Positions 8,780 to 62,032 of a stretch of DNA of 64,000 bases are shown in pieces (position 1 is the first letter of the stretch; every line of letters begins with the position of its first letter). This stretch comes from an uncultured Candidatus Saccharibacteria bacterium (GTDB taxonomy: Bacteria > Patescibacteriota > Minisyncoccia > Phycocordibacterales > CAIZLB01): the NCBI GenBank assembly GCA_964417855.1, contig CAYQJB010000001.1:166709-230708 (forward strand). The letters are read 5' to 3'. A program made the position numbers and the translations under genes. Below the pieces are notes generated by a model. The model had not been told where the DNA came from and ran no database searches. It saw only the letters and a list, made by a program, of their open reading frames with translations.

Positions 8780-8823
8780 ATTTTATTGATGGAAACCCTA
8801 CCTACCCCTCAACTTCTATATAT

Positions 8824-36211: not shown

Positions 36212-37120
36212 ATGAAAAATCCAAATTTAAAAAACAACAGAAGAAGACTCACAAAACAAACAGAACAAGAAGGTTTCATTTCTTCAGGTGAGCCAGTGGG
36301 GGAAACAATGAAGGATTCTGTGTTTGCAAAAAAATCTCTTGGTCAAAATTTTTTAAAGTCCCAAAAGGCACTCAATCAAATTATTGAGGGTGCTGGTGAC
36401 CTAAGGGATAAGACAGTCCTTGAAATTGGCCCTGGAATGGGTTCATTAACCGAAAGACTAATCAAAACCCCCGCAAGCAAAATAATTCTAATTGAGATGG
36501 ATGATAGGCTAATTCCAATACTTACTGAGAAATTTGCTGATGAAATTAAAAACAAAAGAATGGAAATTGTTCATGATGATATTTTAAAAGTAAATTTAAA
36601 TTCAATTGGTCTTACAAAAGGTAATTACAGTTTGATTGCAAATATTCCATATTACATAACAGGTGCAATTATAAGAAATATTATTGGTGGTGATATTTAT
36701 CCAGAAAGAGCTGTGGTTTTAGTACAAAAAGAAGTTGCAGAAAGAATAATTTCTCGTGATAAAAAAGGAAGCCTATTGTCTATCGCCGTGAAAGCAATTG
36801 GCGATCCAAAAATAATTGGCAAGGTTCCAAAAGGTGCCTTTGTTCCATCGCCAAAAGTTGATTCCGCAATACTATTAATTGATAATATTTCAAAAAAAAC
36901 ATTTGACGAAAGTTCTAAAAAAGAAAAAAGGTTTTTTGATATCCTACACGCTGGTTTTGCACACAAAAGAAAATTATTGAAGAGCAATTTAAAAGAACAT
37001 AATATTTTTATTGATGCTGAAAAAGCATTAGAGGTGTGTAATATAAAAAGTGACGCAAGATCTGAAACATTAACATTAGAACAGTGGAAAAAATTATCAT
37101 CTCTTGATATACTTTACTAG
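36212..37120 (+). CDS. rsmA: 16S rRNA (adenine1518/1519-N6)-dimethyltransferase RsmA/KsgA
   Basis: SLGQNFL...LEIGPGMGSLT SAM-binding motif, and NIPYYIT. The true start is probably at the internal MKDSVF. Confidence 0.9.
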   Translation: MKNPNLKNNRRRLTKQTEQEGFISSGEPVGETMKDSVFAKKSLGQNFLKSQKALNQIIEGAGDLRDKTVLEIGPGMGSLTERLIKTPASKIILIEMDDRLIPILTEKFADEIKNKRMEIVHDDILKVNLNSIGLTKGNYSLIANIPYYITGAIIRNIIGGDIYPERAVVLVQKEVAERIISRDKKGSLLSIAVKAIGDPKIIGKVPKGAFVPSPKVDSAILLIDNISKKTFDESSKKEKRFFDILHAGFAHKRKLLKSNLKEHNIFIDAEKALEVCNIKSDARSETLTLEQWKKLSSLDILY

Positions 37121-37969: not shown

Positions 37970-39799
37970 ATGAACAAAACAAAAGACAGCAATATTTGCA
38001 AAAAAGATGGTGGAAAAAAAATTGGCATAGTAATATTTTTTTCTTTAGCTTTTTTAATTTTTAGTTTGGGTGTCGCCAGTGCTCAAACAAATCTTACGGA
38101 CAACCCACTTTTAAATCTAGCTCCTGAACCACCAGCTGCATCAACTCAAACCAAAGTAGACACAGCAGGAGCTCCAAAAGCAACAGTAGTTACAGAGGGT
38201 GCACCAAAAGCAACAATTGTTGATGAAAGTGGGGCCAGTAACGCTTCAGCAAATAAAAGTAATACTGGAACAACGGCGGCCGCACCAGGTGGAGCAGCAT
38301 CCTCTGTAACATCAACTGGAGCTTGCGTTGGTGGTCAAATGCTTGCAAAACTAATGACAAGCGCCATTTCAGCTGGAATAGGCGCCTTAAAAGGAGGAAC
38401 AATGGGTGTTGCAGAACGTTTGTTAAATGTACCATCAACAAACGCACTAACGGAGTCAGCAAGAAACCAGGAAGCTAAATTAAATGCTGAAAATGGTATA
38501 TTTATTTTTGGTGTTCAAACTGGAATAAGTTGGGATGGAATTGCATACTGTATTGTAAACACAGTAATAGATTATATTGTTAATTCAACAATTCAATGGG
38601 CAAACTCAGGATTCAAAGGAAACCCTGCCTTTATCAGAAACCCTCAGCAATTTTTTAAGGGATTAGCAGACCAAACAGCAGCACAATTTATTAGAGAGGT
38701 TGCGTATAATGAAACAGGTATAGATGTCTGTAAGCCATTTAGAGTTGTAATTGCAACAGGTTTAGCTGGTAGTTATTCTAATTTAACAAACGGAAAGTCT
38801 ATACAGTCTTGTTCACTATCACAAATGCAGCAAACAGCAATGCAGTCAGGAAAATATTCAATAACAACCCCTACGGATTGGATTGCTTTAACAAAACCTC
38901 AGAACAATAAGTATTATTCATATATAAACGCAGGGGAAGAGATGAGCAAAAGAGTTGCTGTCAAAAATAACACAGCAAGACTTGACCTTTCAATAAACAG
39001 AGGGTTTCTTAGTTACAAAAAATGTAAAGATGAAAGCAAGCCAGAAAGCAAAACAAACCCTTGTGACACACTAACACCGGGATCAATGATTGCTGATTCG
39101 CTGTCTACAACACTAAATATACCAAAAAACAGACTTGTATCAGCTCAAAAATTTGATCAAATGGTTGATGCGATTGTGAACAACCTGATAAAGATAGCGT
39201 TGAGCAAGACGCTTGAAAGCGTAACTGGACAGGCCCCAACAGCCGCTGTTCAATCAGACTATTATAATATAGTAGCAAACAACGCAACAGCTTATAATGC
39301 TGCAAATATACCTACAGGCCCAGTTGGGCAAGGTGGAACTATAGGTACTTCCGGAGGGCCTCTTCTTCAGCAAATATTGAGTGGTGCCACTTTTTCTAAT
39401 AACGATTGGAATACCTATGCCGTACAACAATTGGTTGCATCGGGTATAGCCAACCTACCAGTTAGTGATGCTTCAACATATTTTTCAGGCGGGGTACCAT
39501 CAGTTCAAGGATACTTAAGTATAATGGCAGCAATAGCACAAAAAGAATCTGGTGGTCAAGCAAAACCAGCAAGATACCAGGAGACAAAGATTGGTAATGG
39601 TACCACATATTCAGTGGGATTAATGAGTCTAACACCCGGAGATTTGGGCACAGGAAATATGACATACGATGACCTAGAAGATCCATATAACAACATTAGA
39701 ATTGCCGTAGGAATTATGGCCAACTTAGTAAGAAAATATGGTGTTCTTCATGGGCCAAACAACACAGGATTATCAGCATATTGGTCAACGTTTAGATAG
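37970..39799 (+). CDS. Secreted protein with C-terminal SLT-type lytic transglycosylase domain (VirB1/PrgK/TcpG-like)
   Basis: Signal peptide; C-terminus AIAQKESGGQ...YSVGLMSLTPGDLG...DPYNNIRIAVGIMANL carries the SLT E-S / GLMQ / AYN-like motifs. Confidence 0.6.
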   Translation: MNKTKDSNICKKDGGKKIGIVIFFSLAFLIFSLGVASAQTNLTDNPLLNLAPEPPAASTQTKVDTAGAPKATVVTEGAPKATIVDESGASNASANKSNTGTTAAAPGGAASSVTSTGACVGGQMLAKLMTSAISAGIGALKGGTMGVAERLLNVPSTNALTESARNQEAKLNAENGIFIFGVQTGISWDGIAYCIVNTVIDYIVNSTIQWANSGFKGNPAFIRNPQQFFKGLADQTAAQFIREVAYNETGIDVCKPFRVVIATGLAGSYSNLTNGKSIQSCSLSQMQQTAMQSGKYSITTPTDWIALTKPQNNKYYSYINAGEEMSKRVAVKNNTARLDLSINRGFLSYKKCKDESKPESKTNPCDTLTPGSMIADSLSTTLNIPKNRLVSAQKFDQMVDAIVNNLIKIALSKTLESVTGQAPTAAVQSDYYNIVANNATAYNAANIPTGPVGQGGTIGTSGGPLLQQILSGATFSNNDWNTYAVQQLVASGIANLPVSDASTYFSGGVPSVQGYLSIMAAIAQKESGGQAKPARYQETKIGNGTTYSVGLMSLTPGDLGTGNMTYDDLEDPYNNIRIAVGIMANLVRKYGVLHGPNNTGLSAYWSTFR

Positions 39800-39881
39800 G
39801 GATAATGTGTAAGTTAAAAATAACCAAAATGGTTAATAAACAACTTATTATTTTTTTAAAGATGGTATATAATATTAACGA

Positions 39882-42362
39882 ATGAATCTGTTTAAAAACA
39901 CAACAATAAAAACAAAAGTTTCTTTAGTGGTGGTGTTTTTATTCTTATTTTTAACACACAATAAAGTGGTATCGGCTAGTCCGTTCGATGACCAAGTTAA
40001 AGCTGCAACACAGCAGGAGTCTGGGATTGTTAAAGACTCTAATGGCCAAATAAGTACAGCACCAGTAGGGTGGTTCTCAACTAACTATGGCGAACTATAC
40101 AATGCGGCGACCCCTGAAAAAAAAGCATTGATGACTCCAGAGATGTCAAAGTTATATGACACTATATTACCTTTAGAACAACAACTTATTGGTCTAAATA
40201 ATGATGCGAATGCAGGCAATCAAAGCCAAAGAACACAACTTGCTTTATCAATTGCACAAGCAAAAGTAGCCTTTAAGACAAACCTTGGTCTTGGTGCTAC
40301 AACCGAAGAAGCTACTGCTGCACAACTTCAAGGTCAGGTTATTTTTTGTCTAGGTGGATCCGGCGTCATTCCAACATTGAATATCCCTGGATGTATTGCA
40401 ATCGTATCATATGAAATACTATATTTAACATCTTGGGTTCTTTGGGTTGCAGCACTGATGTTTGATTGGACAATTGCATGGAGCCTTTCCATGCGAGATA
40501 TTGTTAACAGCTTTGCCGCAATACAATATGGATGGGAGACCTTTAGAAATGTTATTAACTTGTTCTTCATACTTATTCTTGTTTACATATCTATAGCTAC
40601 AATACTTCAAATAAGTGGATATGGTTACAAGCAATTACTTGGAAAATTGGTTATTGCAGCTTTTTTAATTAACTTTAGTATGTTCTTTACTGAAATTATA
40701 ATAGATCTAAGTAATATGACAGCCCTTGTTTTCTATAAGCAAATAATGGTCGATGCAGATAAGTTTGCGTCCTTAGGATCAGCTGGAGCACCAGGCGGAG
40801 CTTCTACTACAACAAATCAAAACCTTTCTCTTGGAATAATGAATGCACTTGGTTTGCAGACAATTTGGGGTGTAGGCCAAGCCAATAAAGGACTTGGTAC
40901 GGCTTCTTCATCACAAACACAAGGAAACAATCCGGCTGTAACTGGGGGAGGAAGTGTTGCTGCAGCTGGAACTGGTCAGGCTGCTATTATTGACCCTTGG
41001 AAGATGACTCTTGTTGGTCTTGGTGGATCTGTCTTCATACTAATCCTGTCTTTTATTTTCTTTGCTGCTTCCTTAATGTTTATGGTAAGGGTACTTATAT
41101 TAATTATTCTTATAATTACCTCACCAATCGCATTTTCAGCAAACGTGCTACCTGGTACAAAATTCTTGTCCGATAAATGGTGGAAACAACTCAATAGTAA
41201 TGTTTTGTTTGCACCCGTCTACATGGCTTTAATGTTTATTACATTAAAAATGATTTGGGGAGGAAGTAATCATGTTACAAACTTGCTGTCCTTGCTTGCT
41301 AACGAGAGCGCAAGTGGTATGCAATCTATAGTATTCTTCTTGTTACTATCTGCCATGTTGGTTGCCTGCCTTACTGTAGCGTCATCCTTAGGTGCAACAG
41401 GGTCTAAGACAATGCAAAGCTGGGGAAAGAGTGCTAGTTCAGGTGCAAAGAAGTTTGCAATAAACAGAGCGGCAGCTCCAGTTAGTTACATAGCAGACAA
41501 GGCATCTAAAAATGCTTTTATAGCAAGAAATGCACCTATACTTCTTCAGGGCGCAGACAAACTTGCTCAAGCAAAACTTGGTGGAACTTCAACATATAGA
41601 TCTAGAGTTGCTGATGACAAAAAGATGTATCAAGCAAGAGGGGATTTAGTTAAAAATGCAGTTACAGGAGAGCTTATCAGAGGTAGAAACGAAAGCTTAA
41701 AAGCTTTTGATGATAGAAAGAAAAACCAAACAGAAGCCGGGGAGATGGCACAAAGGAAACAATTAGGAGTGGGTGAAGGTAACGAAAACGCCTCAATGAG
41801 ATTTAATAAGGGGGCTCAACAAGCTAGACAGGATTTTATGAATAAATCTGAATCTAAAAGTAAAGACAAAGAGGTCAGTGCCGCAACGGTAGAAAAAAAT
41901 CAAAAAGAAATATCTACTGGAGCGATAGCTTTAATCTCTTCAATGAAGGCGTCTGGGGCCCTTAAAAATTTACACCCCGATGAAGCCAAAAAAACAGAGG
42001 ATATAATGAAAGAAATAACTGATGCAAGTGATGCAAAAAAAGAGGTAACACCAGAAATGATTGGAAAGCTTGTTCAAGAATCAAAGGCTCCAATTGATAC
42101 CTTATCAAAAACAATAGCAACAATGGAAAAGAACATGGAGAGATATGCAGGGGTGATTAAGAACACAAGAGATCCATCAATGCTACTTGCTGCAACTCAA
42201 AAACTTGGGGCTATGCAAGCGTCCCACACAATAGCTTCTCAAAAGAGGACTGATATTAAAAATCTTGTTGAACAACAAAAAGCTTTGGCAAAAAGGTCTG
42301 AAGATATAGCAATGCAACAAAAACTTAGAACAGTCACTGAAGAAAACAAACCTAAAGTATAA
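39882..42362 (+). CDS. Polytopic membrane protein, VirB6/TrbL/TcpH-like
   Basis: Signal peptide, then 6 or more TM helices rich in Trp/aromatic residues (YLTSWVLWVAALMFDWTIAWSL...), and a ~350-aa hydrophilic K/A/Q-rich C-terminal tail. The 826-aa size matches Gram-positive VirB6 analogues. Confidence 0.5.
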   Translation: MNLFKNTTIKTKVSLVVVFLFLFLTHNKVVSASPFDDQVKAATQQESGIVKDSNGQISTAPVGWFSTNYGELYNAATPEKKALMTPEMSKLYDTILPLEQQLIGLNNDANAGNQSQRTQLALSIAQAKVAFKTNLGLGATTEEATAAQLQGQVIFCLGGSGVIPTLNIPGCIAIVSYEILYLTSWVLWVAALMFDWTIAWSLSMRDIVNSFAAIQYGWETFRNVINLFFILILVYISIATILQISGYGYKQLLGKLVIAAFLINFSMFFTEIIIDLSNMTALVFYKQIMVDADKFASLGSAGAPGGASTTTNQNLSLGIMNALGLQTIWGVGQANKGLGTASSSQTQGNNPAVTGGGSVAAAGTGQAAIIDPWKMTLVGLGGSVFILILSFIFFAASLMFMVRVLILIILIITSPIAFSANVLPGTKFLSDKWWKQLNSNVLFAPVYMALMFITLKMIWGGSNHVTNLLSLLANESASGMQSIVFFLLLSAMLVACLTVASSLGATGSKTMQSWGKSASSGAKKFAINRAAAPVSYIADKASKNAFIARNAPILLQGADKLAQAKLGGTSTYRSRVADDKKMYQARGDLVKNAVTGELIRGRNESLKAFDDRKKNQTEAGEMAQRKQLGVGEGNENASMRFNKGAQQARQDFMNKSESKSKDKEVSAATVEKNQKEISTGAIALISSMKASGALKNLHPDEAKKTEDIMKEITDASDAKKEVTPEMIGKLVQESKAPIDTLSKTIATMEKNMERYAGVIKNTRDPSMLLAATQKLGAMQASHTIASQKRTDIKNLVEQQKALAKRSEDIAMQQKLRTVTEENKPKV

Positions 42363-42364
42363 TT

Positions 42365-43063
42365 ATGACAACATTTACAGAACAAGAATTTATAGACAAG
42401 ATGAATTTACTGCCTGCAGAGTTACAAAAAAAACTTCTTTTACTTGATTATGATGATGATTTCATTAGTATCATCAATTATAATAGTATTAAGCCAGCAG
42501 AAACTATCAACGCAATTGGTTTGGCCGTTAGGTTGGTAGCTCTTGGTTTTTCCTCAAAGCAAGAATTATTTGAATCTGTTTCTAATGAAGTCTTAGTTGA
42601 AGATGAAGCCAGACACATATTCAGTGAAATAGACAGAACAATACTAGTACCAAACAACCTTAAGGGTATTATCGAAACAGGAATAGAATTACACACTGAA
42701 GGACAAGAGGATGCAACAAACACTGAAGACAAGTATTCAACTCACAACATCACAGAAACAGCAGAAGACATTCTGAAAGAAATTGAAAATCCAACACCAG
42801 CTACGTCCTCAATGGTTTCTAGTTTTAACAAACAAACTACCACAACACTGACGGCTGTAGGGCCTCATGATCAGCTTTCAGTCGATGGTTTAACTAATGA
42901 GTCCTCAAATATTATAAAGAATCCTCAAAACACAGCAACACCAACCGATACAACACCTGCACCAAACAAAGAAGGACAACTTGAAGCAAAATTAACAGAA
43001 ACTGTGATTCAACCAGTAAAATCAACATATTATAAGGTAGATCCATATAGGGAGGAGATGTAG
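42365..43063 (+). CDS. Hypothetical cytoplasmic protein (paralogue of the next gene)
   Basis: The N-terminus TEQEFIDKMNLLPAELQKKLLLLDYDD resembles TEQFNKLPESFKTAIKASDYDK of 43095..43442. Confidence 0.35.
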   Translation: MTTFTEQEFIDKMNLLPAELQKKLLLLDYDDDFISIINYNSIKPAETINAIGLAVRLVALGFSSKQELFESVSNEVLVEDEARHIFSEIDRTILVPNNLKGIIETGIELHTEGQEDATNTEDKYSTHNITETAEDILKEIENPTPATSSMVSSFNKQTTTTLTAVGPHDQLSVDGLTNESSNIIKNPQNTATPTDTTPAPNKEGQLEAKLTETVIQPVKSTYYKVDPYREEM

Positions 43064-43094
43064 GTACCTATAAATCAATTGAATAATTAAAAAC

Positions 43095-43442
43095 ATGACA
43101 GCAACATCCATAGAAAGAAACACAGAACAATTTAACAAGCTTCCTGAAAGCTTCAAAACAGCAATTAAAGCTAGCGATTATGATAAATCACTAGCTTTAA
43201 TTTCAAAGGAACATAAACTACACATTGATCAGTCTTCTATGTTAGAGGAATTATTAGCAAAACTTATTTTTGGAGATATTGAATCTGAAGATATCATTTC
43301 TGAGATGAAATCAAAGTTAAATCTTTCAAAAGAAGAGGCAACAAAGATTGCCGCAGAACTTGATCAGATGATAATTAAAGAAATTAAACGTAATTTAATG
43401 AATATTCAGAAGGAGACAACTGTAAAAGAAGACGTAGAATAA
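43095..43442 (+). CDS. Hypothetical small protein (paralogue of 42365..43063 N-domain)
   Basis: Shared N-terminal motif as in the previous entry; 115 aa; no TM. Confidence 0.35.
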   Translation: MTATSIERNTEQFNKLPESFKTAIKASDYDKSLALISKEHKLHIDQSSMLEELLAKLIFGDIESEDIISEMKSKLNLSKEEATKIAAELDQMIIKEIKRNLMNIQKETTVKEDVE

Positions 43443-43468
43443 TTGTCATGATATAATTGTTTTGATAA

Positions 43469-43924
43469 ATGAGATATCAAACACCACAATTTATTGAGGA
43501 GGAAACAAAACTATTTGGCCCACTTACTTTTAAGCAGTTCGTATATCTAATTGGAGGAGCTGGTATCTCTTTTGCTGTATACAAAATGCTTCCGTTTCTT
43601 TTGGCAATACTAATAATCGCACCTGTTGCTGGAGCCTCGCTTGCTTTGGCTTTCTATAAGATAAATGAAAGACCTTTTATAGACGCCGTGGAAGCAGCCT
43701 TCTATTTTATTATATCAAACCGTCTTTACACGTATCAAAAAATAGATAAACCTACTCAGCAATTAAGAACTTCACAAAAGACAATGATTGCCCCCGTACC
43801 TAAGATTGGGGCATCCACAAGCAGACTTAAGGATTTGGCATGGAGCTTAGATATCAATGAGAATATAAAAGATAAAAGTAAGGACAACTTTGATATGGGG
43901 GTTAATGATAAAATAAAAATATAA
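43469..43924 (+). CDS. PrgI/TcpE-family (VirB3-like) small membrane protein
   Basis: RYQTPQFIEEETKLFGPLTFKQFVYLIGGAGISFAVYKM and a two-TM layout match the PrgI family pattern. It lies directly upstream of VirB4. Confidence 0.6.
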   Translation: MRYQTPQFIEEETKLFGPLTFKQFVYLIGGAGISFAVYKMLPFLLAILIIAPVAGASLALAFYKINERPFIDAVEAAFYFIISNRLYTYQKIDKPTQQLRTSQKTMIAPVPKIGASTSRLKDLAWSLDINENIKDKSKDNFDMGVNDKIKI

Positions 43925-43932
43925 TTAATAAA

Positions 43933-44589
43933 ATGGCATCAAATCAAGAAAATTTTTCAAAACCTACACAAGATTTTGTCCCTATAAAAGAAGTTAGAGA
44001 TGGAATTGTTATATTAAAAGATGGTTCTATGAGGGCTATTCTTCTTGCTTCTTCTATTAACTTTGCATTGAAGTCTCCTGAAGAACAACAGTCTGTTCTT
44101 TATCAGTTTCAAAACTTTTTAAATTCAATAAACTTTTCTATACAAATCTTTGTTCAATCAAGAAGACTAGATATTACGCCTTATATTAACCTTCTTGAAG
44201 ATAGAATAAAATTCCAATCAAGTGAACTTATGAAGGTTCAAACAAGGGAGTACATGGACTTCGTTAGAAATCTAACTGAGTCAGTAAACATTATGACAAA
44301 AAGTTTCTTTGTTGTTGTTCCATATTCTCCAACTGTACTTAATAAAAAAGGGGGTGTGTTTGGAGGTATGTTTGGAGGTAAAAAAACATCTAAAGAATCT
44401 GAGAATGACGAGTATCTTCAGTTTGAAGAATTTAAAAGCCAACTTCAACAAAGAGTAGAGGTTGTAGAACAAGGTCTTGTTAGATGTGGAGTTAGAATCG
44501 CTCAACTTGGAACTGAAGAAATCATTGAGTTCTTCTACAAACTCTTCAATCCAGGTACTGTTGAAAAACCAATAGATATGTCTAAGTAA
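43933..44589 (+). CDS. VirB4/PrgJ/TcpF-like ATPase, N-terminal domain (separate ORF)
   Basis: FVPIKEVRDGIVILKDGSMRAILLASSINFALKSPEEQQSVLYQFQNFLNSI resembles the N-terminal CagE/TrbE/VirB4 region of Gram-positive VirB4 homologues. It ends with a TAA 60 nt before the next ATG. Confidence 0.55.
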   Translation: MASNQENFSKPTQDFVPIKEVRDGIVILKDGSMRAILLASSINFALKSPEEQQSVLYQFQNFLNSINFSIQIFVQSRRLDITPYINLLEDRIKFQSSELMKVQTREYMDFVRNLTESVNIMTKSFFVVVPYSPTVLNKKGGVFGGMFGGKKTSKESENDEYLQFEEFKSQLQQRVEVVEQGLVRCGVRIAQLGTEEIIEFFYKLFNPGTVEKPIDMSK

Positions 44590-44649
44590 GTTTTGGTTTG
44601 TTGATATCTGGAATTTTTTTATATTTTAGAGTACAATTAAAATAATAAT

Positions 44650-46497
44650 ATGAGCCTATTAGATTTTTTAAAGAAGCCTCAAGAGGAATCTTCACCAATT
44701 AGTTCCATTCTACCTAAGGAAATTTACCAATCTGGTGTTTTAGAACTACAAGACATAATCGCACCTTCTGGTTTAAAAATAAGTCCAAAGACAATCAACT
44801 TAGGAGAGAAGATTGTTAGAACATTCTTTGTTATTTCTTATCCAAGATTTTTATCATCGAACTGGTTTTCTCCAATAATTAACCTCGACAAGGTTTTTGA
44901 TATTTCGATTTTTATACACCCAGTAGACACAGCTACTGTACTTAGACAATTTACAAAAAAAGTTGCTGATATTGAAGTTGATATAAGTACGAGAGAGACT
45001 AAGGGATTAGTTAGAGATCCGAAGTTAGATACTGCCTATCAAGACCTAGAAGAGCTGCGTGACAAGCTACAGCAGGCACAGGAGAGACTTTTTGACATAG
45101 GTCTATACATTGCTATATATGGTGAAGACGAGCAAGAATTAGACAAAATTGAATCAGAAATAAAATCTATTCTTGAATCAAACTTGGTTTTCATTAAGCC
45201 CGCCCTTTTCCAACAAGAACAAGGCTTTCAAAGTGTTTTACCAATTGGTGAAGACAAGCTTGGGGTTCACTCTAAATTAAACTCTGAACCACTATCAAGT
45301 ATTTTCCCATTTATTTCTTTTGACCTTACATCAGATAAAGGAATTCTTTACGGTATAAACAGACACAACTCAAGTCTTATTCTTTTTGATAGATTTTCAC
45401 TGGAAAACTACAACTCTGTAACATTTGCTAAAGCTGGTTCCGGAAAATCTTATCAAACAAAACTAGAGATTATTAGATCTATGATGTTTGATACAGATGT
45501 TATAGTACTCGACCCAGAACGTGAGTATGAATACCTTGCTGAAGCAACTGGTGGTAGATATTTTAATATTTCCCTAACATCAGATCACCACATCAATCCA
45601 TTTGACCTACCGGTTCCAAGAGAAGGGGAATCATCATCAGACGTTCTAAGATCAAACATTATTAACCTTGTTGGATTATTTAGAATAATGCTTGGAGGAT
45701 TAACAGCAGAGGAGGATGCTGTTGTTGATAGAGCCATCACAGAAACTTACGCCCTTAAAGATATTACTCCTGAATCAAACTTTGCAGCCGCAGAACCTCC
45801 ACTTATGTCAGACTTTGAGCTTGTTCTTAGTGGAATGGAAGGGGGAGAGTCATTAGCACAAAGACTTACAAAGTACACAAAAGGAACATGGGCTGGTTTT
45901 ATCAACAGACCATCAAACGTAGACATCAACAAGAAGTTTGTTGTTTTTTCACTTAGAGATATGGAAGAAGAACTGAAGCCTGTTGCTATGTATATTGTTA
46001 TGCACTATATATGGAACGCTATTAGAAAGGAGCTTAAGAAAAGACTTTTGGTCATTGATGAGGCATGGTACTTAATGAAATCAGAAGATACAGCTTCATT
46101 CTTGCTTGGTCTAGCAAAAAGAGGAAGAAAGTATTATTTGGGACTTGCTACAATTACACAGGACGTTGAGGATTTTTTGAAGTCTCCATACGGTCTTCCT
46201 ATTATTTCAAACTCTTCTATTCAAATCTTATTAAAGCAATCTCCATCTTCTATTGATATTGTTCAAAAAACATTTAACTTAACGGATGAAGAAAAATATT
46301 TACTTCTTGAATCTGATGTGGGGGAGGGGATGTTTTTTGCTGGTCTAAAACACGTAGCAATCAAGGTTATTGCATCCTATACGGAGAATCAAATAATTAC
46401 ATCTAAGCCATCAGAGGTTCTACAGATTAAAAAGGAAAAGGCAGAACTTGCTGCACAAAAAGAAGAGGAGATGGATAAATTAAAAAAGGTTCTATAG
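44650..46497 (+). CDS. VirB4-like T4SS ATPase, C-terminal ATPase module
   Basis: Walker A FAKAGSGKSYQT, Walker B LVIDEAWYLM, and conservation along the VirB4 C-terminal domain; 615 aa. Confidence 0.8.
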   Translation: MSLLDFLKKPQEESSPISSILPKEIYQSGVLELQDIIAPSGLKISPKTINLGEKIVRTFFVISYPRFLSSNWFSPIINLDKVFDISIFIHPVDTATVLRQFTKKVADIEVDISTRETKGLVRDPKLDTAYQDLEELRDKLQQAQERLFDIGLYIAIYGEDEQELDKIESEIKSILESNLVFIKPALFQQEQGFQSVLPIGEDKLGVHSKLNSEPLSSIFPFISFDLTSDKGILYGINRHNSSLILFDRFSLENYNSVTFAKAGSGKSYQTKLEIIRSMMFDTDVIVLDPEREYEYLAEATGGRYFNISLTSDHHINPFDLPVPREGESSSDVLRSNIINLVGLFRIMLGGLTAEEDAVVDRAITETYALKDITPESNFAAAEPPLMSDFELVLSGMEGGESLAQRLTKYTKGTWAGFINRPSNVDINKKFVVFSLRDMEEELKPVAMYIVMHYIWNAIRKELKKRLLVIDEAWYLMKSEDTASFLLGLAKRGRKYYLGLATITQDVEDFLKSPYGLPIISNSSIQILLKQSPSSIDIVQKTFNLTDEEKYLLLESDVGEGMFFAGLKHVAIKVIASYTENQIITSKPSEVLQIKKEKAELAAQKEEEMDKLKKVL

Positions 46498-46505
46498 AAA
46501 AACAA

Positions 46506-46546
46506 ACACCCCACCGCTCATTTTATGAATAGTGGGGTGTTTTTAT
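46506..46546 (+). terminator. Rho-independent terminator after VirB4
   Basis: ACACCCCAC...GTGGGGTGT stem followed by TTTTT. Confidence 0.65.
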
Positions 46547-46581
46547 ATATTATTATCTTGAAATCTGTTAATATATAACTA

Positions 46582-47043
46582 ATGAATGAAAGGCAGGCCA
46601 AAAATCAACAGCGTCTACAGAGTGGTAAACAACTTGGTCAGGATTCTTCTGTTGATTCAAAAAACAATGACACGTCTGAAGGCGGTGCTGACAACAGCTC
46701 TGGTGAAAAAAAAATTACCCAATCTGTTTTTTTTAAACTGTTAACTGTTTTACTAATTCTTGATATAATCGGATTAATTCCATTTATTGGATGGGCAATA
46801 AGCACTGTTGCATCGCTTTTAATATTTAGAAAATTTGGGGTTAAATTTCACTACAAAAACATCATGAAAGTTGGTACTTGTGACTTAGTTAAGGTAATTC
46901 CAGGAGTTAGTCTTATTCCTACTTTTGTAATGAGTGGAATTTTAACAATTGGACCTATGGTTAGCGGTCTTGGAGAAGGAATTCCTGGAGGGCAACATGT
47001 TGCAAACAAAGTACAGAAAGCTATTTCTATGACTAAAAAATAA
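46582..47043 (+). CDS. Small two-TM membrane protein (T4SS-cluster associated)
   Basis: Polar N-terminus; hydrophobic helices LLTVLLILDIIGLIPFIGWAISTVASLLIF and VSLIPTFVMSGILTIGPMV. Confidence 0.35.
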   Translation: MNERQAKNQQRLQSGKQLGQDSSVDSKNNDTSEGGADNSSGEKKITQSVFFKLLTVLLILDIIGLIPFIGWAISTVASLLIFRKFGVKFHYKNIMKVGTCDLVKVIPGVSLIPTFVMSGILTIGPMVSGLGEGIPGGQHVANKVQKAISMTKK

Positions 47044-47107
47044 AGTATTTATAAAGTTATAAACAAAAAATTACTTTCGTTGTACAATTAGTGATATAAT
47101 TAATAAG

Positions 47108-48160
47108 ATGATTAAAAAAAACAAACACTTACTTATTTCAACACTTTCTTTGATTGTTTTATTTTTAGTTTTTATTCTAATAAACAAAACAGAGGCACAG
47201 GTAGGGGATCCGTCTAGTATTCCAATTCCACAACAAATAAAGGAAATAAAGCAGCAGTTAGATATAAACATTTCCCCTGAGGTACCGGAACCAAATCAAG
47301 ACGTGACAATAACAGTGGAGGCCTATGGTTTGGATTTAAATTCCACAGATATGCAGTGGTTGATAAATGGTAAAGAAAAAGTTAGGGGTCTTGGTGAGAA
47401 AAAATTCACTTTAAATGTTGGGAACTCTGGGCAAAGTACGGTTACGTTAAACATTACACCCAAAGACCAACCTTTGATTTCCAGAGTTTTTGTTTTTAAT
47501 CCTTCCAATGTTGATCTTTTGTGGCAAGCCGAAACTTATACGCCCCCATTTTATAAAGGAAAAGCTTTATTTTCCCCAGAATCGTCAGTGACAATGGTTG
47601 CTATTCCAAATTTTATTAATGGTACCACAAGGACAAATGATTCAAATGTTGTATACAAGTGGAGTATAGACAGAGAGGTTCAGGGGGACTACTCGGGTTA
47701 TGGAAAAAATTCTTTTCAATACACATCAGATATATTGTCTCTGGATACAGAGATAGAGATCGAGGCTTATCCTTCTAGTCAACAAACAAGAAAGGGTGTT
47801 GGTAGCGCCTTGTTGTCTACAAAAAATGCTTTTCTTCTGTTTTATGAAGACAACCCAACAAACGGTGTAATGTTTAACTACTCTCTTAAGAATCAGGTTA
47901 ATTTAGGAACAAGAAACGAATCAAAGATAAGCGCCTTTCCTTTTAACTCTAGTTCAAATAGTAAAAGTTCTGGTTTAGAATACACATGGTATGTAAACTC
48001 TGAAAAGATTGATATACCGTTGAGTACAAACACAATAACAATCAAAAAGAACTCTGCTCAAAAAATTGATGTTGCAAGTATACTTGTTTCCTTATCAAAC
48101 CCTACACACATAATGCAAGAGACCCAAAATAGCATCGATTTTTTGTTTAACAATAATTAG
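47108..48160 (+). CDS. Secreted hypothetical protein (signal peptide, beta-rich repeats)
   Basis: Signal peptide MIKKNKHLLISTLSLIVLFLVFILINKTEA. No family recognised. Confidence 0.4.
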   Translation: MIKKNKHLLISTLSLIVLFLVFILINKTEAQVGDPSSIPIPQQIKEIKQQLDINISPEVPEPNQDVTITVEAYGLDLNSTDMQWLINGKEKVRGLGEKKFTLNVGNSGQSTVTLNITPKDQPLISRVFVFNPSNVDLLWQAETYTPPFYKGKALFSPESSVTMVAIPNFINGTTRTNDSNVVYKWSIDREVQGDYSGYGKNSFQYTSDILSLDTEIEIEAYPSSQQTRKGVGSALLSTKNAFLLFYEDNPTNGVMFNYSLKNQVNLGTRNESKISAFPFNSSSNSKSSGLEYTWYVNSEKIDIPLSTNTITIKKNSAQKIDVASILVSLSNPTHIMQETQNSIDFLFNNN

Positions 48161-48226
48161 TACTTTTGCACATTATTTTTCCTTCATAAATATACACAAA
48201 TCTTTATTTGTTGTATTATATTAGTA

Positions 48227-48988
48227 ATGAATATCCTTAGTAATAATAAAAACAAAATTGGTGGCAAGTTTTTAGCAGCAACAAGTATTCTGTCAATATC
48301 ATTATATTTATTTTTTGGGATTGTTAGTGTTGTGGAGGCGGTTGATTTTCCCGCTTCTTTAGGGGGAGGTTCTATGAGTCCAACAACGAACAGTGTCACA
48401 AAAACAGCCGCTCCCACACTAACTGATTGGAGTACTTTTAATTCAGGTTCAAACTATAATCCAAACTCTACCCCCAACTCTGCACAGCCAACATCTCCAG
48501 TAATAACTCCAGGCTCTCAAGCTATGCTACAACAGATGGGGCCTCCGAGCAGTGCCGCTTGTGGAATATCTGTTTCTGGTAGTGGTGGTAAAGGAAAATG
48601 GAATTATTGTATGCTTGCTCCTATAGGAGGCCTTATAGGGACACCGTCGGGAACTGGTAAGGACGCAACGGAGATTGTTGATTTGGAGAAAGGCCTACAA
48701 CCATTCTTTGCTGGGGTTTACAAAGTTGGTGTAACAGCAGCTGTTGCTCTTTCAATTCTTGTTATTTCAATAGGTGGAATTAGAATGGCAACAATAGACT
48801 CCATAACAGCCAAGGAGGAGGGCAAGAACATGATCAACGCAGCTCTTTCAGGGTTGTTTTTGGCTCTGTTTTCTTATGTTTTACTTTACACAATCAACCC
48901 AGCTTTGATTGGTAATGGGGAGGGGTCAATTTTTCCAACCTCAACAATTCAAATAAATGTAAACCCGTCAACACCAGCAAAAAAATAA
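48227..48988 (+). CDS. Candidate VirB2/TrbC-like pilin-type protein
   Basis: Signal/anchor, a polar T/S/P-rich linker, then a C-terminal ~90 aa of two hydrophobic helices (VGVTAAVALSILVISIGG ... ALSGLFLALFSYVLLYTINPAL), as in T4SS pilins. Confidence 0.3.
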   Translation: MNILSNNKNKIGGKFLAATSILSISLYLFFGIVSVVEAVDFPASLGGGSMSPTTNSVTKTAAPTLTDWSTFNSGSNYNPNSTPNSAQPTSPVITPGSQAMLQQMGPPSSAACGISVSGSGGKGKWNYCMLAPIGGLIGTPSGTGKDATEIVDLEKGLQPFFAGVYKVGVTAAVALSILVISIGGIRMATIDSITAKEEGKNMINAALSGLFLALFSYVLLYTINPALIGNGEGSIFPTSTIQINVNPSTPAKK

Positions 48989-48990
48989 AA

Positions 48991-50454
48991 ATGTCTAGAT
49001 CAAAATTAATCATCTCTATTGCACTAATATTAAGTATAGCCCTCGGTATTCTTGTTGGTATATATTTTTATACAAAAAAAACCACCCAAGGCAACCTTCC
49101 AACACAAACTGATAAAACAATCTTTGGTGGTGTTGGTGGGGTCAGAACTGATCTGCCAACAGACAACACAAACAACCCCCAAGGACAAACTACCTCTGGT
49201 ACAGAAAAACCAACAGGAACGTCAACACCAAAAGCAACCCTACTTAGAAGAATAGCTATTGGACCAATATCTGGAGATGATTTTGTCATGAGGGATGTTT
49301 TTGCAACAACAAGTAATTCTTCAACAACACAAACTGTTGGAACTTCTACAAAGAAACAAACAATTAAAGTGACTGTACCAGCTAAACCAAAACTATTAGG
49401 TCAAGAAGAAAAAATCAGATATATGGAAAGGGGAACGGGAAGAGTTTTTGAGGCTGAAGCAACAACGTCCACAATTCAAAGAATAACCAACTCAACCTAT
49501 ACAAGAACAGTTGAATCATTTTTTGACAAGAAAGGTGATAATGTTCTTTTTAGAAATCTTTTGGAAAACACAGATACCATACAAACAAGACTTGGAACAG
49601 TCTCGCTTGACACACCAACATCCACAGAATACTCTTTAAAAACAAAGGACTTTCCATATAATCTTCTTTCTGTTGTCACATCACCAGAAAAAGATTCTTT
49701 TGCATCTTATTTTGAGTCAAAAGGAGTGGGTTCTTCAATTAATATTAGTAGATTTGATGGAACAGGAGTTTTTACAGTTTATAAGTCACCATTTAGAGAA
49801 TGGTTGTTGTCCTGGCCAAACACAAATACTTTAGTTTTGAACACAAAACCTTCAACCTATTCTCCCGGCTATGCATATTCTATCAATATAAAAACCAAAG
49901 CTTTTAGCAGAATAACAGGGGGTCAAAATGGTTTAACAACGCTTGTTTCACCAGATGGTTTAAATGTTTTAGTGGGGGAGAGCATTGATGGATCTATGAA
50001 ATTAAGTATTTTAAATCTTAAAACACAGTCTTTTAGAGAGATATATACAAGAACCTTACCAGAAAAATGTGTTTGGTCTAAGTTAGAAAAAAGTGTTCTG
50101 TTTTGTGCAGCAAGTGAGTCTATTGTATACGCTCCTTACCCAGATGCTTGGTATCAAGGTTTGGTATTTTTTGATGACAATGTTTGGAAAATAAACATCG
50201 ACACACAAGAAAACAAGCTGATTGCTGTTGTTAAAGACACGGTTAAGGATGGTTTAGATATCACAAACATGATTTTAAACAAGAATGAGGACTATATGCT
50301 GCTTACAAACAAAAAAGACTTAAGTTTGTGGGGTCTTCAAATAGAGAAACCTGTTGCTGTGGTGGCCACCACAACACCTTCAAGGGTTAAAAACACAACA
50401 ACTAGCACAACAACAAAAGCCACATCGAGTAAAGCAACGAATACAAAGAAGTAA
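48991..50454 (+). CDS. Membrane-anchored T-rich hypothetical protein (last gene of cluster)
   Basis: N-terminal TM LIISIALILSIALGILVGIYFY, a Thr/Pro-rich linker and a ~350-aa extracytoplasmic domain. ATG overlaps the previous stop region. Confidence 0.4.
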   Translation: MSRSKLIISIALILSIALGILVGIYFYTKKTTQGNLPTQTDKTIFGGVGGVRTDLPTDNTNNPQGQTTSGTEKPTGTSTPKATLLRRIAIGPISGDDFVMRDVFATTSNSSTTQTVGTSTKKQTIKVTVPAKPKLLGQEEKIRYMERGTGRVFEAEATTSTIQRITNSTYTRTVESFFDKKGDNVLFRNLLENTDTIQTRLGTVSLDTPTSTEYSLKTKDFPYNLLSVVTSPEKDSFASYFESKGVGSSINISRFDGTGVFTVYKSPFREWLLSWPNTNTLVLNTKPSTYSPGYAYSINIKTKAFSRITGGQNGLTTLVSPDGLNVLVGESIDGSMKLSILNLKTQSFREIYTRTLPEKCVWSKLEKSVLFCAASESIVYAPYPDAWYQGLVFFDDNVWKINIDTQENKLIAVVKDTVKDGLDITNMILNKNEDYMLLTNKKDLSLWGLQIEKPVAVVATTTPSRVKNTTTSTTTKATSSKATNTKK

Positions 50455-50548: not shown

Positions 50549-51274
50549 TTATTTTATATCCTTTTTGATGGTTTTTCTAAAATATAATTCTTGGGCAATA
50601 GCAAAAATATTTGAAGTTATCCAATATAGTGAAATAGCTGAGGTTAAGCTAAATGAGATCAAAAAAACGATAGCTGGCATTGTATATCTCATTTGTACAT
50701 TCATACTTCTTGCAAAATCTTCTTGCTTTCCACCCTTACCTGTTGGAACAAAAGCTGGAACAGAGTATCTTATTTGGATGAATTGTGTAATTCCTACCAC
50801 AATACTAAGCCAAATATTCTTCTTTGTTATATCCAGTAATCCTAAAAACAAAACATTAACTATTTGTGGATTTGGAATAAAGCTATACAGTATTTGTGGA
50901 TCTATGTGAGGCAAACCTGATGTGTAAAAAATTTTTGCTAAAGAAAGGATGATGGGTAGCTGAATAAGCATTAAAAGAATACCTGAAAATGGATTTAGGT
51001 TGTTTTTCTTATAAAAATCTAACGTGAGTTTTGCTTGTTCCTCTTTATTATTAGCAGTTTTCTCTTTAATTTTATTCAACTCAGGCTCCAAAGCCTTCAT
51101 TTTCAGCTGTGTTTTAACAGAACTTTTTGATAAGGGGATTAATATAAACTTAACAACACAAGTAAAAAGGATAACAGCAACACCAAGATCAGCTCCTGGT
51201 GTGTGATTTATTATAAATACAAGTCCGTTATATAGTGGATTATAAAAAGTGAAACTAAAAAAATTTGATATCAT
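50549..51274 (-). CDS. yidC: Membrane protein insertase YidC (short form)
   Basis: YidC/Oxa1 core with conserved TM arrangement; rpmH-rnpA-yidC synteny. Confidence 0.85.
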   Translation of the reverse strand: MISNFFSFTFYNPLYNGLVFIINHTPGADLGVAVILFTCVVKFILIPLSKSSVKTQLKMKALEPELNKIKEKTANNKEEQAKLTLDFYKKNNLNPFSGILLMLIQLPIILSLAKIFYTSGLPHIDPQILYSFIPNPQIVNVLFLGLLDITKKNIWLSIVVGITQFIQIRYSVPAFVPTGKGGKQEDFARSMNVQMRYTMPAIVFLISFSLTSAISLYWITSNIFAIAQELYFRKTIKKDIK

Positions 51275-51654
51275 TGTTTTATTATATCTTCTTTTACTAA
51301 AATTTGCTTAATATCTGAAACGATTTCTCCAAAACCTGCGTTTTTTGACGTTTCTTTTGAAAGGAACACAAAAGAGGGGATTGTAGTGTTTTTATCTTCA
51401 AGCCCCAACTCTTTTATGGCTGTAACAAAAGCCTCTCTAAGCCTTCTTTTAGACTTGTTTCTATCAATAGCTTTTATACAAACCTTTTTAGAACAAACGA
51501 ACGATCCTTCCAACTGATTAACCTTATCTTTAGGCACAACAGGCCCTGTTTCTTTTTTTTCAAAAACTTTCAAAAGAAAAAAGCCTGAATTATAGGCTCT
51601 TCCTTTTTTCATTATTAAAGCAATTTGGGTTGAAGAAAGGCTTTTTATTGTCAT
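51271..51654 (-). CDS. rnpA: Ribonuclease P protein component
   Basis: KAIDRNKSKRRLREAF is the RnpA RNR motif; 127 aa; position between rpmH and yidC. Confidence 0.8.
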   Translation of the reverse strand: MTIKSLSSTQIALIMKKGRAYNSGFFLLKVFEKKETGPVVPKDKVNQLEGSFVCSKKVCIKAIDRNKSKRRLREAFVTAIKELGLEDKNTTIPSFVFLSKETSKNAGFGEIVSDIKQILVKEDIIKQ

Positions 51655-53707: not shown

Positions 53708-54808
53708 ATGAAAATTGAATGCATCAGAGAAAGATTAGCAGAAGCTGTTTCAAAAGCTGAAAAGATTACAAGTAAGAACGCGTCATTACCTGTTCTTAAG
53801 TGTATTCTTTTAAAAGCAACTAAAGACGGTTTGTTTATAAGTGCAACAAATCTTGATATTGGAATAGAAATAAAAATACCAGCAAAAGTTGAAGTTGAAG
53901 GGTCTATAGCAATCCCTGGTTCTATACTAAATTCTTTCTTAAATAGTATATCTTCAGAGAAAACGGTTAAACTTGATTCAGAAGATGGTAACTTGATTGT
54001 TTCTACTCAAAAGACAAATACTGTCATAAAAATATTTCCAGATGATGATTATCCTTTGATTCCTAAGGTAGACACCGGTAAAGGGTTTGAAATGCCTACA
54101 GAGAGCCTTGTGACAGGCATTAAGTCTGTTTGCTATAGTTCTGCTACTTCTAGTATTAAACCAGAGCTCTCAAGTGTTTGTGTGACTCCAGAAGAAGATT
54201 CCATTCTCTTTGTTGCCACCGATGGATTAAGACTTGCTGAAAAAACAATTAAATTAAAAAATAATTTTGATTTTACACAAATATTAATACCTGTTAAGAA
54301 TGCGATTGAAATAATTAGGATTTTTGAAGGAGGGGAGGATATGTTAAGTATCGTTATTGAACAAAACCAAATCGCTATAACAGCAGGAGATACCTATTTG
54401 GTTTCAAGGATTGTTGAAGGTAATTTTCCTAATTACAAAGCTATTATTCCAAAAGATTTTGTTTCTGAGGTAACTGTTTTAAAACAAGACTTAATGAATT
54501 GCTTCAAAACAAGTTCTATTTTTACAGATGCTTTTAATCATACTAAATTTGTTGTACACGCGGAGGAAAAAAGTGTTGAGATTATAACAAAAAATAATAA
54601 TGTCGGTGAAAATTCGACATCTATATCAGGAAATGTTGTAGGGGAGTCATTAGATATTAATTTTAACTATAAATACATAATGGAGGCGTTAGCTTCTATT
54701 AACTCTGATAGCTTAATACTTTCCTTTAGTGGGGTTAATAAACCTATGATAATGAAACCTGTGGGCGATTATAGCTTTCTTTACCTATTAATGCCTATGA
54801 ATAGATAA
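53708..54808 (+). CDS. dnaN: DNA polymerase III beta sliding clamp
   Basis: 366 aa; three-domain clamp pattern; follows dnaA. Confidence 0.9.
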   Translation: MKIECIRERLAEAVSKAEKITSKNASLPVLKCILLKATKDGLFISATNLDIGIEIKIPAKVEVEGSIAIPGSILNSFLNSISSEKTVKLDSEDGNLIVSTQKTNTVIKIFPDDDYPLIPKVDTGKGFEMPTESLVTGIKSVCYSSATSSIKPELSSVCVTPEEDSILFVATDGLRLAEKTIKLKNNFDFTQILIPVKNAIEIIRIFEGGEDMLSIVIEQNQIAITAGDTYLVSRIVEGNFPNYKAIIPKDFVSEVTVLKQDLMNCFKTSSIFTDAFNHTKFVVHAEEKSVEIITKNNNVGENSTSISGNVVGESLDINFNYKYIMEALASINSDSLILSFSGVNKPMIMKPVGDYSFLYLLMPMNR

Positions 54809-60322: not shown

Positions 60323-62032
60323 CTATTTTTCCTCCTCAATATAATCATCTTTTGTTAAGTCTATAACTCTCTCTAATTCTTCAAAAGAAGTTTGCCCTTG
60401 TAAAACTTTTACTACACCATCTTGTCTCATGTCCATAAAGCCTTGTTTTTTTGCAACAGCCCTAATCTCTCTTTCACTTGGGTTCTCTCTAACAATCTTT
60501 TCAATAGAAGCGTCTGTTAATATTAATTCATGAATACCAACTCTATCTGCATACCCAGTGTTGTTGCAGGCAACGCACCCAACAGGAACATATATTTCAG
60601 TTGGTTTTTCAGGGAACTCTTTTGCTTCTTCCATGTCTTTGATTGAATCAAGAACATCGTCAACCAAAGCTATTCTTTCAGGTGGTATTGGCATCTTCTT
60701 TTTGCATTTTTCACAAAGCACTCTAACAAGACGTTGAGCAATAGCGGCATGAATAGCCGATGTTAATGTTTTTGGATCAGCACCAAGATCTATTAGTCTA
60801 GTAAATGTTCCTGCGGCATTGTTTGTGTGGAGTGTTGAGAACACAAGGTGTCCTGTTAGTGCGGCGTTAATGGCAGTAACGGCTGTTTCGGCGTCTCTGA
60901 TTTCTCCAACCATTATAATGTCTGGGTCTTGTCTCATTGCAGATTTTAAACCAGCCTGAAACGTATAACCTTTGGCATCTTCAACTTGTGTTTGAACAAT
61001 TCCAGGAAGGTGATATTCAACAGGGTCTTCAATTGTAATAATCTTATATTCAGGACTTGATACCTCTCTTAAAAAGGCATAAAGAGTTGTTGTTTTTCCA
61101 GAACCAGTTGGTCCTGTTGTTAAAATTAAACCATTTGGTCTAGCAATTTCTTTTCTAATTGCTGCTAAAAAACGCTTTGTCATTCCTAATTTATCCATAG
61201 TAACCATAATAGATTCTGGATTTAGAATACGCATAACCACAGACTCACCATATGAACCAGGGATTGTTGATGTTCTAATTTCTATGTCACTTCCCTTAAG
61301 TTTAACTGTAAATCTTCCGTCTTGAGCATTTTCTTTAACGTTTAATTTTAATCCAGACAAAAGTTTTAAGCGTGAGAGCATAAGGTTGTATGTGTCCTTG
61401 TCGAATTCTGCAACAGTGGTCAAAACACCATCAATTCTATAACGCAGTCTGGAATTAAATTCTCCAGCCTCCATGTGAACATCGGATGATTTTGTAGAAA
61501 GAGCTCCAGCCATCATAATAGAAAGCATTTTTGAAACACGGTGAGTTTTCTTCATTTCAAGAGCTTCTTTTATCCAAGTTGCAATATCCTCTAGTTTTTT
61601 TGTTCTCTCAACCAAAGATTCAATTTCCTCACTTGAAATATCTAATGATCCAGCCTCAGTTTGAGCCGCAAAAGAAAGGTCTTTATATCTTTCCCATGCC
61701 TTTTCTAAACTATGTGTTGATGCGATAAAAAGTGTTACTTGATAACCCTTTCTACCCAGATTATCTAGTACATCCTTTGTTTCAATACTATCTGGGGAGT
61801 GAACAGCTAAAGATATTTTAGTACCAATTATATCAAACACTGCGGTTTGGCTTGATTTTGCAACCTCCTCCTCTATCATTTTTAAACCATCTGAGTTAAT
61901 TGGAACAGTTGTTAGGTCAATGTAGGTAAGATTGTATTTATCCGCCAACATTTGCATAGAAGCTTCTTCTTCATCAATAAGAAGTTGTTTCATTCTTGTG
62001 TCTTGTTTTTCTTCATCAAATTGAATTGTCAT
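60323..62032 (-). CDS. Second GspE/PilB-family secretion/pilus ATPase (paralogue)
   Basis: T2SSE_N-like N-domain; Walker A LILTTGPTGSGKTTTLY; CVACNNTGY zinc-binding-type CxxC. 569 aa, clearly distinct from the PilB at 8824..10608. Confidence 0.8.
   Translation of the reverse strand: MTIQFDEEKQDTRMKQLLIDEEEASMQMLADKYNLTYIDLTTVPINSDGLKMIEEEVAKSSQTAVFDIIGTKISLAVHSPDSIETKDVLDNLGRKGYQVTLFIASTHSLEKAWERYKDLSFAAQTEAGSLDISSEEIESLVERTKKLEDIATWIKEALEMKKTHRVSKMLSIMMAGALSTKSSDVHMEAGEFNSRLRYRIDGVLTTVAEFDKDTYNLMLSRLKLLSGLKLNVKENAQDGRFTVKLKGSDIEIRTSTIPGSYGESVVMRILNPESIMVTMDKLGMTKRFLAAIRKEIARPNGLILTTGPTGSGKTTTLYAFLREVSSPEYKIITIEDPVEYHLPGIVQTQVEDAKGYTFQAGLKSAMRQDPDIIMVGEIRDAETAVTAINAALTGHLVFSTLHTNNAAGTFTRLIDLGADPKTLTSAIHAAIAQRLVRVLCEKCKKKMPIPPERIALVDDVLDSIKDMEEAKEFPEKPTEIYVPVGCVACNNTGYADRVGIHELILTDASIEKIVRENPSEREIRAVAKKQGFMDMRQDGVVKVLQGQTSFEELERVIDLTKDDYIEEEK

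Follow-up and report, generated by a model that had tools for sequence, protein, structure and literature searches.

Probable two-polypeptide VirB4 ATPase encoded by adjacent genes of a chromosomal type IV secretion system in a Patescibacteria genome

The present analysis concerns two adjacent open reading frames (ORFs) in a 64-kb stretch of contig CAYQJB010000001.1 (the whole stretch of DNA analysed, referred to below as the window), which a first-pass annotation made from the letters of the DNA had read as a VirB4 ATPase encoded in two pieces. The upstream ORF encodes a protein of 218 amino acids (aa), termed here the N protein, and the downstream ORF a protein of 615 aa, termed the C protein. 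The most probable interpretation, to which a probability of about 0.88 is assigned, is that the pair forms a genuine VirB4 made of two polypeptides, the ATPase that energises a chromosomal type IV secretion system (T4SS) of monoderm type (MPF-FATA-like) in a Patescibacteria (Paceibacteria-like) genome. In this best explanation, gene 1 corresponds to the first ∼210 residues of full-length VirB4, i.e. the first module of its N-terminal domain, and gene 2 to the remaining N-terminal domain together with the Walker A/B motor domain. The two genes jointly encode every part of VirB4, and they are adjacent, co-oriented and conserved as a pair. Far from being confined to this genome, the arrangement is standard and has already been described for the whole lineage.

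Results

The positions given for both ORFs by the first-pass annotation were confirmed, with both on the + strand (Table 1), as were their combined length of 833 aa and the AT-rich gap of 60 nucleotides (nt) that separates them. Both ORFs are read in one and the same frame, in which the spacer carries three stops (TAA, TGA and TAA), so that no single nonsense or frameshift change explains their separation. The use of an alternative genetic code was considered and rejected, as recoding of TGA would leave two TAA stops and translation with table 11 gives normal long ORFs throughout the window. The extensive family of the N protein, with more than 7,900 relatives, and the score of the C protein above the cutoff of model NF045971 identify both as real genes and not chance ORFs.

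The sequence of the C protein identifies it as a VirB4/TraC-type T4SS ATPase, both by the motifs of the motor domain and by the cutoff of a curated model. It scored 367.1 bits against NF045971 (conju_CD1110; cutoff 325), covering positions 179-733 of 752, and 89 bits against Pfam P-loop_TraG, and it matched the crystal structure of the VirB4 C-terminal domain (PDB 4ag5) with an E value of 5.5e-38. Residues G481, G483, K484 and S485 of Walker A and D688 and E689 of Walker B, in the numbering of the concatenated N and C proteins, are invariant in alignment A3. The C protein falls under the cutoffs of TIGR00929, TIGR02746 and NF045975, which is expected because the N-terminal ∼200 residues are absent from it.

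The N protein belongs to a large and well conserved family. More than 7,900 relatives were found among 5.8 billion proteins, and 2,570 clusters at 50% identity were matched among 1.8 billion cluster representatives. The 120 best relatives listed all have lengths of 210-228 aa, and their assemblies are those of Patescibacteria/Paceibacteria. The identical 218-aa protein is present on 6 contigs (sources NCBI, JGI, Logan and ENA), and ∼70 residues are invariant across 41 homologues. Several relatives, P0137, P0138, P0161, P0166, P0174 and P0196 among them, are 300-443 aa long, with the TrsD-like domain at the N-terminus and 100-220 further residues after it.

Two models already exist for the small protein, Pfam PF26593 "TraC-like" and NCBIfam NF041427, the latter describing the TrsD/TraD family. 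PF26593 is precomputed on P0001, which is identical to the N protein, and on all of the 120 best listed relatives; the local Pfam scan of the N protein did not return it. The match to NF041427 (30 bits, E value 4.1e-7) covers model positions 15-142 of 201, and by sequence the N protein is best described as a remote relative of TrsD/TraD outside the narrow NF041427 family. The first-pass annotation had proposed that alignment of the 218-aa ORF with a distinct, known small T4SS protein would undercut the split. Such a match formally exists in TrsD/TraD, weak as it is, yet it leaves the split reading intact, because TrsD itself is a detached N-terminal part of VirB4, as indicated by the alignments made here and by its remote homology to the VirB4 N-terminus described by Quinonero-Coronel et al. 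(2025; PMC12102498).

A search of the PDB with the sequence of the N protein gave no meaningful match, the best hit being a T-cell receptor chain (E value 0.76); VirB4 was detected there by fold comparison only. The top 14 PDB matches of the AlphaFold2 (AF2) model of the N protein (predicted local distance difference test, pLDDT, of 70) are all TrwK/VirB4 chains of the R388 system, the best having an E value of 2.8e-4 and a template-modelling score (TM-score) of 0.48 normalised to the query, which suggests that the predicted fold is that of VirB4.

When both proteins were aligned to full-length VirB4 models, as the first-pass annotation had advised, the N protein covered the first part and the C protein the remainder, collinearly and without overlap, in four models. 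The N and C proteins occupy positions 7-170 and 264-726 of 792 in TIGR00929, 97-233 and 290-893 of 894 in NF045975, and 16-175 and 292-373 of 375 in Pfam TraC_F_IV; in NF045971, the N protein covers positions 2-107 of 752, ahead of the part covered by the C protein. Such complementary coverage fits a split, and would not be predicted by a duplication. A complete VirB4 N-terminal domain ahead of the motor is obtained only from the two proteins jointly. Natural single-chain proteins give the same picture: residues 11-207 of the fused 858-aa VirB4 encoded on plasmid pYRE of Myxococcus are matched by the N protein and residues 325-750 by the C protein, and in the fused Patescibacteria protein P0255 (797 aa) the N and C proteins align to residues 4-215 (phmmer; 40% identity) and 225-795 (57% identity), respectively, with ∼10 residues between the two aligned parts.

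The structure of the concatenated N and C proteins was predicted on an alignment of 56 natural fused homologues. The resulting model (pLDDT 75.5) aligns with full-length TrwK over 812-875 columns with an E value of 3.7e-28, which is consistent with a complete VirB4 fold. The junction residues 213-248 have a pLDDT below 50, so that the break appears to fall in a flexible linker, predicted to be disordered.

In residues ∼42-196 of the C protein, the predicted secondary-structure elements follow one another as they do in the N protein, with three strands, helix, strand, two helices, strand, helix, strand and helix (window 43933-45339 for the two together), and residues 158-196 of the N protein give a weak profile match to residues 127-161 of the C protein (E value 0.019). 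This recurrence could reflect a tandem duplication that took place long ago within the N-terminal domain of VirB4; the match is statistically unsupported, as the comparison of the N profile with the first 230 residues of the C protein was not significant at that E value.

The comparison of orthologous loci, likewise advised by the first-pass annotation, revealed that the split is conserved. A total of 83 loci were examined, 80 of them from one-genome-per-species representatives and three from metagenome or metagenome-assembled genome (MAG) contigs. The split is present in 75 of the 75 complete pairs, which come from other Patescibacteria genomes (two of the pairs, L001 and L002, are copies of one contig), and the N gene always lies directly upstream of an ATPase gene of 599-678 aa. 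The gap between the two genes has a median of 5 nt and falls between −4 and +30 nt in 61 of the 75 pairs; only 15 pairs share a frame. Among the best 150 cluster representatives, the N protein is standalone (146-443 aa) in 149. Within the same loci, identity is lower in the N part (55-67%) than in the C part (69-84%). Conservation of the split across loci with varied gaps and frames, with both parts conserved, excludes pseudogenisation and assembly error as its explanation.

A clade of fused proteins was also found. At least 118 clusters (90% identity) of TrsD-VirB4 proteins of 775-807 aa (P0255 and P0271-P0389; search with P0255) all carry PF26593 together with P-loop_TraG, and several of the records name Candidatus Colwellbacteria. 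The order of genes on a 645-kb Colwellbacteria contig is ComM, ksgA, large membrane protein, PrgI, VirB4, yidC-rnpA-rpmH and dnaA-dnaN, and the fused gene of locus L092 (Table 1) is syntenic with the two genes of the window. A fused orthologue at a syntenic locus is a classic kind of support for the view that the N and C polypeptides act as one VirB4. In a neighbour-joining (NJ) tree of the N domains, standalone forms surround the fused clade, which lies 14 nodes deep among them, and the split proteins of Bacillota and Actinomycetota plasmids are basal. A standalone protein of 224 aa (P0181) falls inside the fused clade in the same tree. Disruption of the fused gene is seen in a MAG closely related to this clade at 88% identity (L091:1282-3470): residues 1-89 are in frame +1, residues 193-796 are in frame +3, and the ∼100 residues in between are absent, through either true decay or mis-assembly.

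The same gene order extends to plasmids of cultured Bacillota and Actinomycetota, where a triplet of PrgI-like gene, N module (260-344 aa) and short VirB4 (620-660 aa) is found in Pontibacillus, Planococcus, Clostridium perfringens, C. botulinum, Thermoanaerobacterium and the actinomycete Miltoncostaea. The small gene of the triplet is annotated TrsD in Planococcus and "TraC family protein" in C. perfringens and C. botulinum. On the Staphylococcus plasmid pGO1, a gap of 14 nt separates trsD (227 aa) from the downstream gene for the 672-aa ATPase TrsE. The C protein is 23% identical to TrsE, and its residue 3 aligns with residue 2 of TrsE (LLDFLKKPQEE versus IMAFLKKKKQEQ). As the C protein aligns with TrsE from the first residues, the break point between TrsD and TrsE is regarded as homologous to that of the window.

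The two genes are part of a T4SS gene cluster, as shown by Pfam matches and by synteny with loci L003 (where TrbL_3 and T4SS_pilin are annotated) and L092. The PrgI gene lies directly 5′ of the pair, with the SLT-domain protein and the large membrane protein farther upstream, a setting expected of a VirB4/TraC-type ATPase; a PrgI gene occupies the equivalent position in loci L001-L003 and L092 and on plasmids. The cluster is placed next to the presumed replication origin, because yidC-rnpA-dnaA-dnaN follow immediately downstream of it, and this layout recurs in loci L003, L091 and L092. The Pfam scan, which took in most, not all, of the long ORFs of the window, revealed neither a relaxase nor a VirD4/TraG coupling protein, so that within this set the cluster lacks the relaxase and type IV coupling protein that mark a conjugative T4SS, in agreement with the published result for most Patescibacteria (PMC12102498). 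A recently acquired island was considered and rejected, as the G+C content is uniform across the window (0.32-0.39) and the locus is syntenic in distant relatives. Type IV pilus genes share the window with the T4SS, namely two genes for PilB-like T2SSE ATPases of 594 and 569 aa, each with an MshEN domain, and a PilC-like T2SSF gene (403 aa), at 7568-10608 and 60323-62032.

Table 1. Features of the T4SS cluster and its surroundings (positions refer to the window, unless a locus is named)
Feature	Position	Strand	Basis or remark
ksgA	36212-37120		Flanks the T4SS cluster on one side
Whole chromosomal T4SS gene cluster	37970-50454	+	Pfam and synteny with L003 and L092
VirB1-like SLT-domain protein	37970-39799	+	Pfam scan
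826-aa membrane protein, VirB6/TrbL position	39882-42362	+	Cluster member, between SLT gene and small ORFs
PrgI-family (VirB3-like) small membrane protein, 151 aa	43469-43924	+	Pfam PF12666 PrgI, 33.8 bits (cutoff 27)
TrsD-like/"TraC-like" N protein, 218 aa	43933-44589	+	ATG start, TAA stop; first module of VirB4 N-terminal domain
Spacer, 60 nt	44590-44649		AT-rich, 18% G+C; three stops in the frame common to both ORFs
Short VirB4 ATPase (C protein), 615 aa	44650-46497	+	ATG start; rest of N-terminal domain and P-loop motor domain
Walker A, AKAGSGKS	45427-45450	+	Residues 260-267 of the 615-aa protein
Walker B, LLVIDEAW	46045-46068	+	Residues 466-473 of the 615-aa protein
Four ORFs of 153, 350, 253 and 487 aa			3′ of the 615-aa ATPase gene, in the T4SS cluster
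yidC	50549-51274	-	Flanks the T4SS cluster on the other side
rnpA	51271-51654	-	Flanks the T4SS cluster, yidC side
dnaA	51927-53324		Beyond rnpA, past the T4SS cluster
dnaN	53708-54808		Beyond dnaA
Fused gene of locus L092	L092:6001-8337		oriC-proximal locus, syntenic with the two genes of the window

Expression signals were also inspected. At 60 nt, the spacer exceeds that of most relatives in length, and it carries two −10-like hexamers, TACAAT at −18 and TAAAAT at −12 relative to the ATG of the 615-aa ORF (44632-44643). The promoter and terminator scan detected no terminator-like hairpin in the spacer, and promoter-like matches are not enriched in the region (36 found versus 38 expected from shuffled sequence). 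Across the window, a TANAAT hexamer lies within 30 nt upstream of the start codon in 23 of 50 long ORFs, as compared to 7.5% of random 30-nt windows (a background not AT-matched to intergenic DNA), and the start of the motif peaks at −15 to −11. One such hexamer, TATAAT at 43920-43925, precedes the ATG of the 218-aa ORF. None of 10 T4SS genes has a Shine-Dalgarno sequence. The placement of TANAAT looks like that of the −10 boxes of leaderless or very short-leader mRNAs.

Discussion

The reading of the two genes as a genuine two-polypeptide VirB4, which was one of three offered by the first-pass annotation, is the one that the conserved split supports, since all the complete pairs are split and their spacers and frames vary. 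In its main rival, the 218-aa protein has an accessory T4SS role of its own, for example as adaptor, chaperone or regulator, and derives from an ancient paralogue of the N-terminus of VirB4, while the 615-aa VirB4 is functionally complete alone. This is considered unlikely. Some functional independence is suggested by those relatives of the N protein that carry extra C-terminal residues, and the faster evolution of the N protein as compared to the C protein at the same loci also agrees with an accessory role, as does the report that the TrsD homologues of Gracilibacteria are mostly not encoded beside virB4 (PMC12102498). However, in none of the full-length models tested does the C protein contain the region covered by the N protein; the two complement and do not duplicate each other. 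Moreover, the syntenic orthologues of Colwellbacteria join both parts in one chain through a linker of ∼10 residues, and the concatenated proteins align end to end with TrwK.

The two other readings offered by the first-pass annotation were both rejected. That a recent nonsense or frameshift mutation broke a single virB4 would agree with the common frame of the ORFs and with a summed length normal for VirB4, but the spacer, with its three in-frame stops and 18% G+C, has no coding similarity, the gaps and frames differ among the conserved pairs, and both proteins are strongly conserved, the N protein with its many invariant residues included. The relative that is truly disrupted, L091, looks different, with its two frames and the loss of ∼100 residues; a pseudogene is thus scarcely credible here. 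An artificial separation of one gene by a sequencing or assembly error carries an equally negligible probability. The window does come from a metagenome-assembled genome, the identical protein is annotated in a MAG, and the spacer contains homopolymer runs; nevertheless, the identical 218-aa protein recurs on 6 contigs from several sources, and at least 75 species, assembled independently, show the same architecture, as do finished plasmids from cultured bacteria.

Several observations weigh against the two-polypeptide reading or against parts of it. The match of the N protein to NF041427 is far under the curated cutoff (30 versus 200 bits), which places it outside that family, and the profile comparison (hhalign) of the N family with pGO1 TrsD was not significant (E value 0.019, probability 2.5%), so that the link to TrsD rests on the NF041427 model, the gene order and the break point. 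The AF2 model of the concatenated proteins has a predicted template-modelling score (pTM) of 0.52 and a TM-score of ∼0.42 against TrwK, and because of these moderate values it does not establish the relative placement of the domains. The putative physical association of the N and C proteins has only indirect support, from the fused orthologues and from the conserved adjacency of the genes. As the spacer is comparatively long and bears −10-like hexamers, the two genes may not be strictly co-translated. The NJ tree was built on ∼200 columns and has no bootstrap support, and its outgroup is not monophyletic; owing to this crudeness, the derivation of the fused form from the split one is only probable.

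With these points taken into account, the following mechanism may be envisaged for the two-polypeptide VirB4. The N and C proteins would be made from adjacent genes and would associate non-covalently into a VirB4-like protomer and then a hexamer. The N module, together with the PrgI/VirB3-like protein, might anchor the ATPase hexamer to the membrane channel, by analogy with the N-terminal domain of TrwK in R388.

The history of the arrangement can be sketched from sequence comparison. The break point shared with pGO1 TrsD/TrsE suggests that the split predates the divergence of Patescibacteria and pGO1-type systems. The fused form of Colwellbacteria is probably a secondary re-fusion, which is the most economical interpretation because of the nesting of the fused clade in the NJ tree and the break point shared with pGO1. 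Taken jointly, a broader proposal can be put forward tentatively, at somewhat below even odds: TrsD-like proteins would be the first module of the VirB4 N-terminal domain in detached form, separated by an ancient break at the same point in pGO1-type plasmids, numerous plasmids of Bacillota and Actinomycetota and nearly all Patescibacteria, and re-fused once in Colwellbacteria. A separate chain might allow independent control of stoichiometry or assembly, here possibly through a leaderless promoter in the spacer.

The two-gene arrangement of VirB4 in Patescibacteria is already published (PMC12102498). As described there, TrsD is the most abundant component of Patescibacteria T4SS, with 2,272 homologues of which 1,664 are encoded near VirB4, its gene usually lying adjacent to virB4, and is otherwise confined to the pGO1 subclass; it is listed without an assigned function, and data on its essentiality in Ca. 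Southlakia epibionticum are cited. The word 'split' does not appear in the main text of that article. The article also describes Patescibacteria T4SS clusters as often lying near dnaA and lacking a relaxase, and the cluster of the window matches its picture of T4SS put to a use other than conjugation. The additions made here are modest: an explicit test of complementarity, the break point shared with pGO1 TrsE, a wider occurrence on plasmids of Bacillota and Actinomycetota, and the fused Colwellbacteria clade at a syntenic locus.

The practical value of these results lies mainly in guarding against mis-annotation: where a short VirB4 follows a small "hypothetical protein" in Patescibacteria or on Gram-positive plasmids, neither pseudogenisation nor mis-assembly should be assumed. 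The fused orthologues of Colwellbacteria also offer a simple argument for TrsD-like proteins, which are essential in the one Patescibacteria species tested, being part of the VirB4 motor. Beyond this, the finding is ordinary for the lineage.

In some Gram-negative systems, VirB3-VirB4 fusion proteins occur, and the VirB3, VirB4 N-terminal and motor modules can be separate or joined without loss of function. These fusions represent the opposite event, the joining of VirB3 to VirB4, in a different class of T4SS. Among single-chain enzymes, TrwK of R388 (PDB 7o41, 7o43 and 8rtd), VirB4 of the CD1110 family and the fused form of Colwellbacteria have the same order, full length, Walker A/B motifs and N-terminal-domain fold as the N and C proteins together. 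Full-length VirB4/TraC is one polypeptide, whereas the window encodes two, and the identity of the concatenated proteins to TrwK is only ∼15%, with the low global TM-score given above.

TrsD and TrsE of S. aureus pGO1 (TraD and TraE of the pSK41 type; MPF-FATA subclass pGO1) have the same two-gene layout, with a small membrane-protein gene upstream, and the same break point as the window; the sequence similarity is very remote. In addition, the plasmid pGO1 is conjugative and encodes both a relaxase and a VirD4-like coupling protein, whereas the cluster of the window is chromosomal, stands beside dnaA and has neither among its Pfam-scanned ORFs. The closest resemblance is to the Patescibacteria T4SS of PMC12102498, which comprise the same set of PrgI/VirB3, TrsD, VirB4, VirB6-like, VirB1-like hydrolase and pilin-like genes and are likewise chromosomal and near dnaA. 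As compared to the systems described there, nothing substantive is different in the window, which represents one more instance of them.

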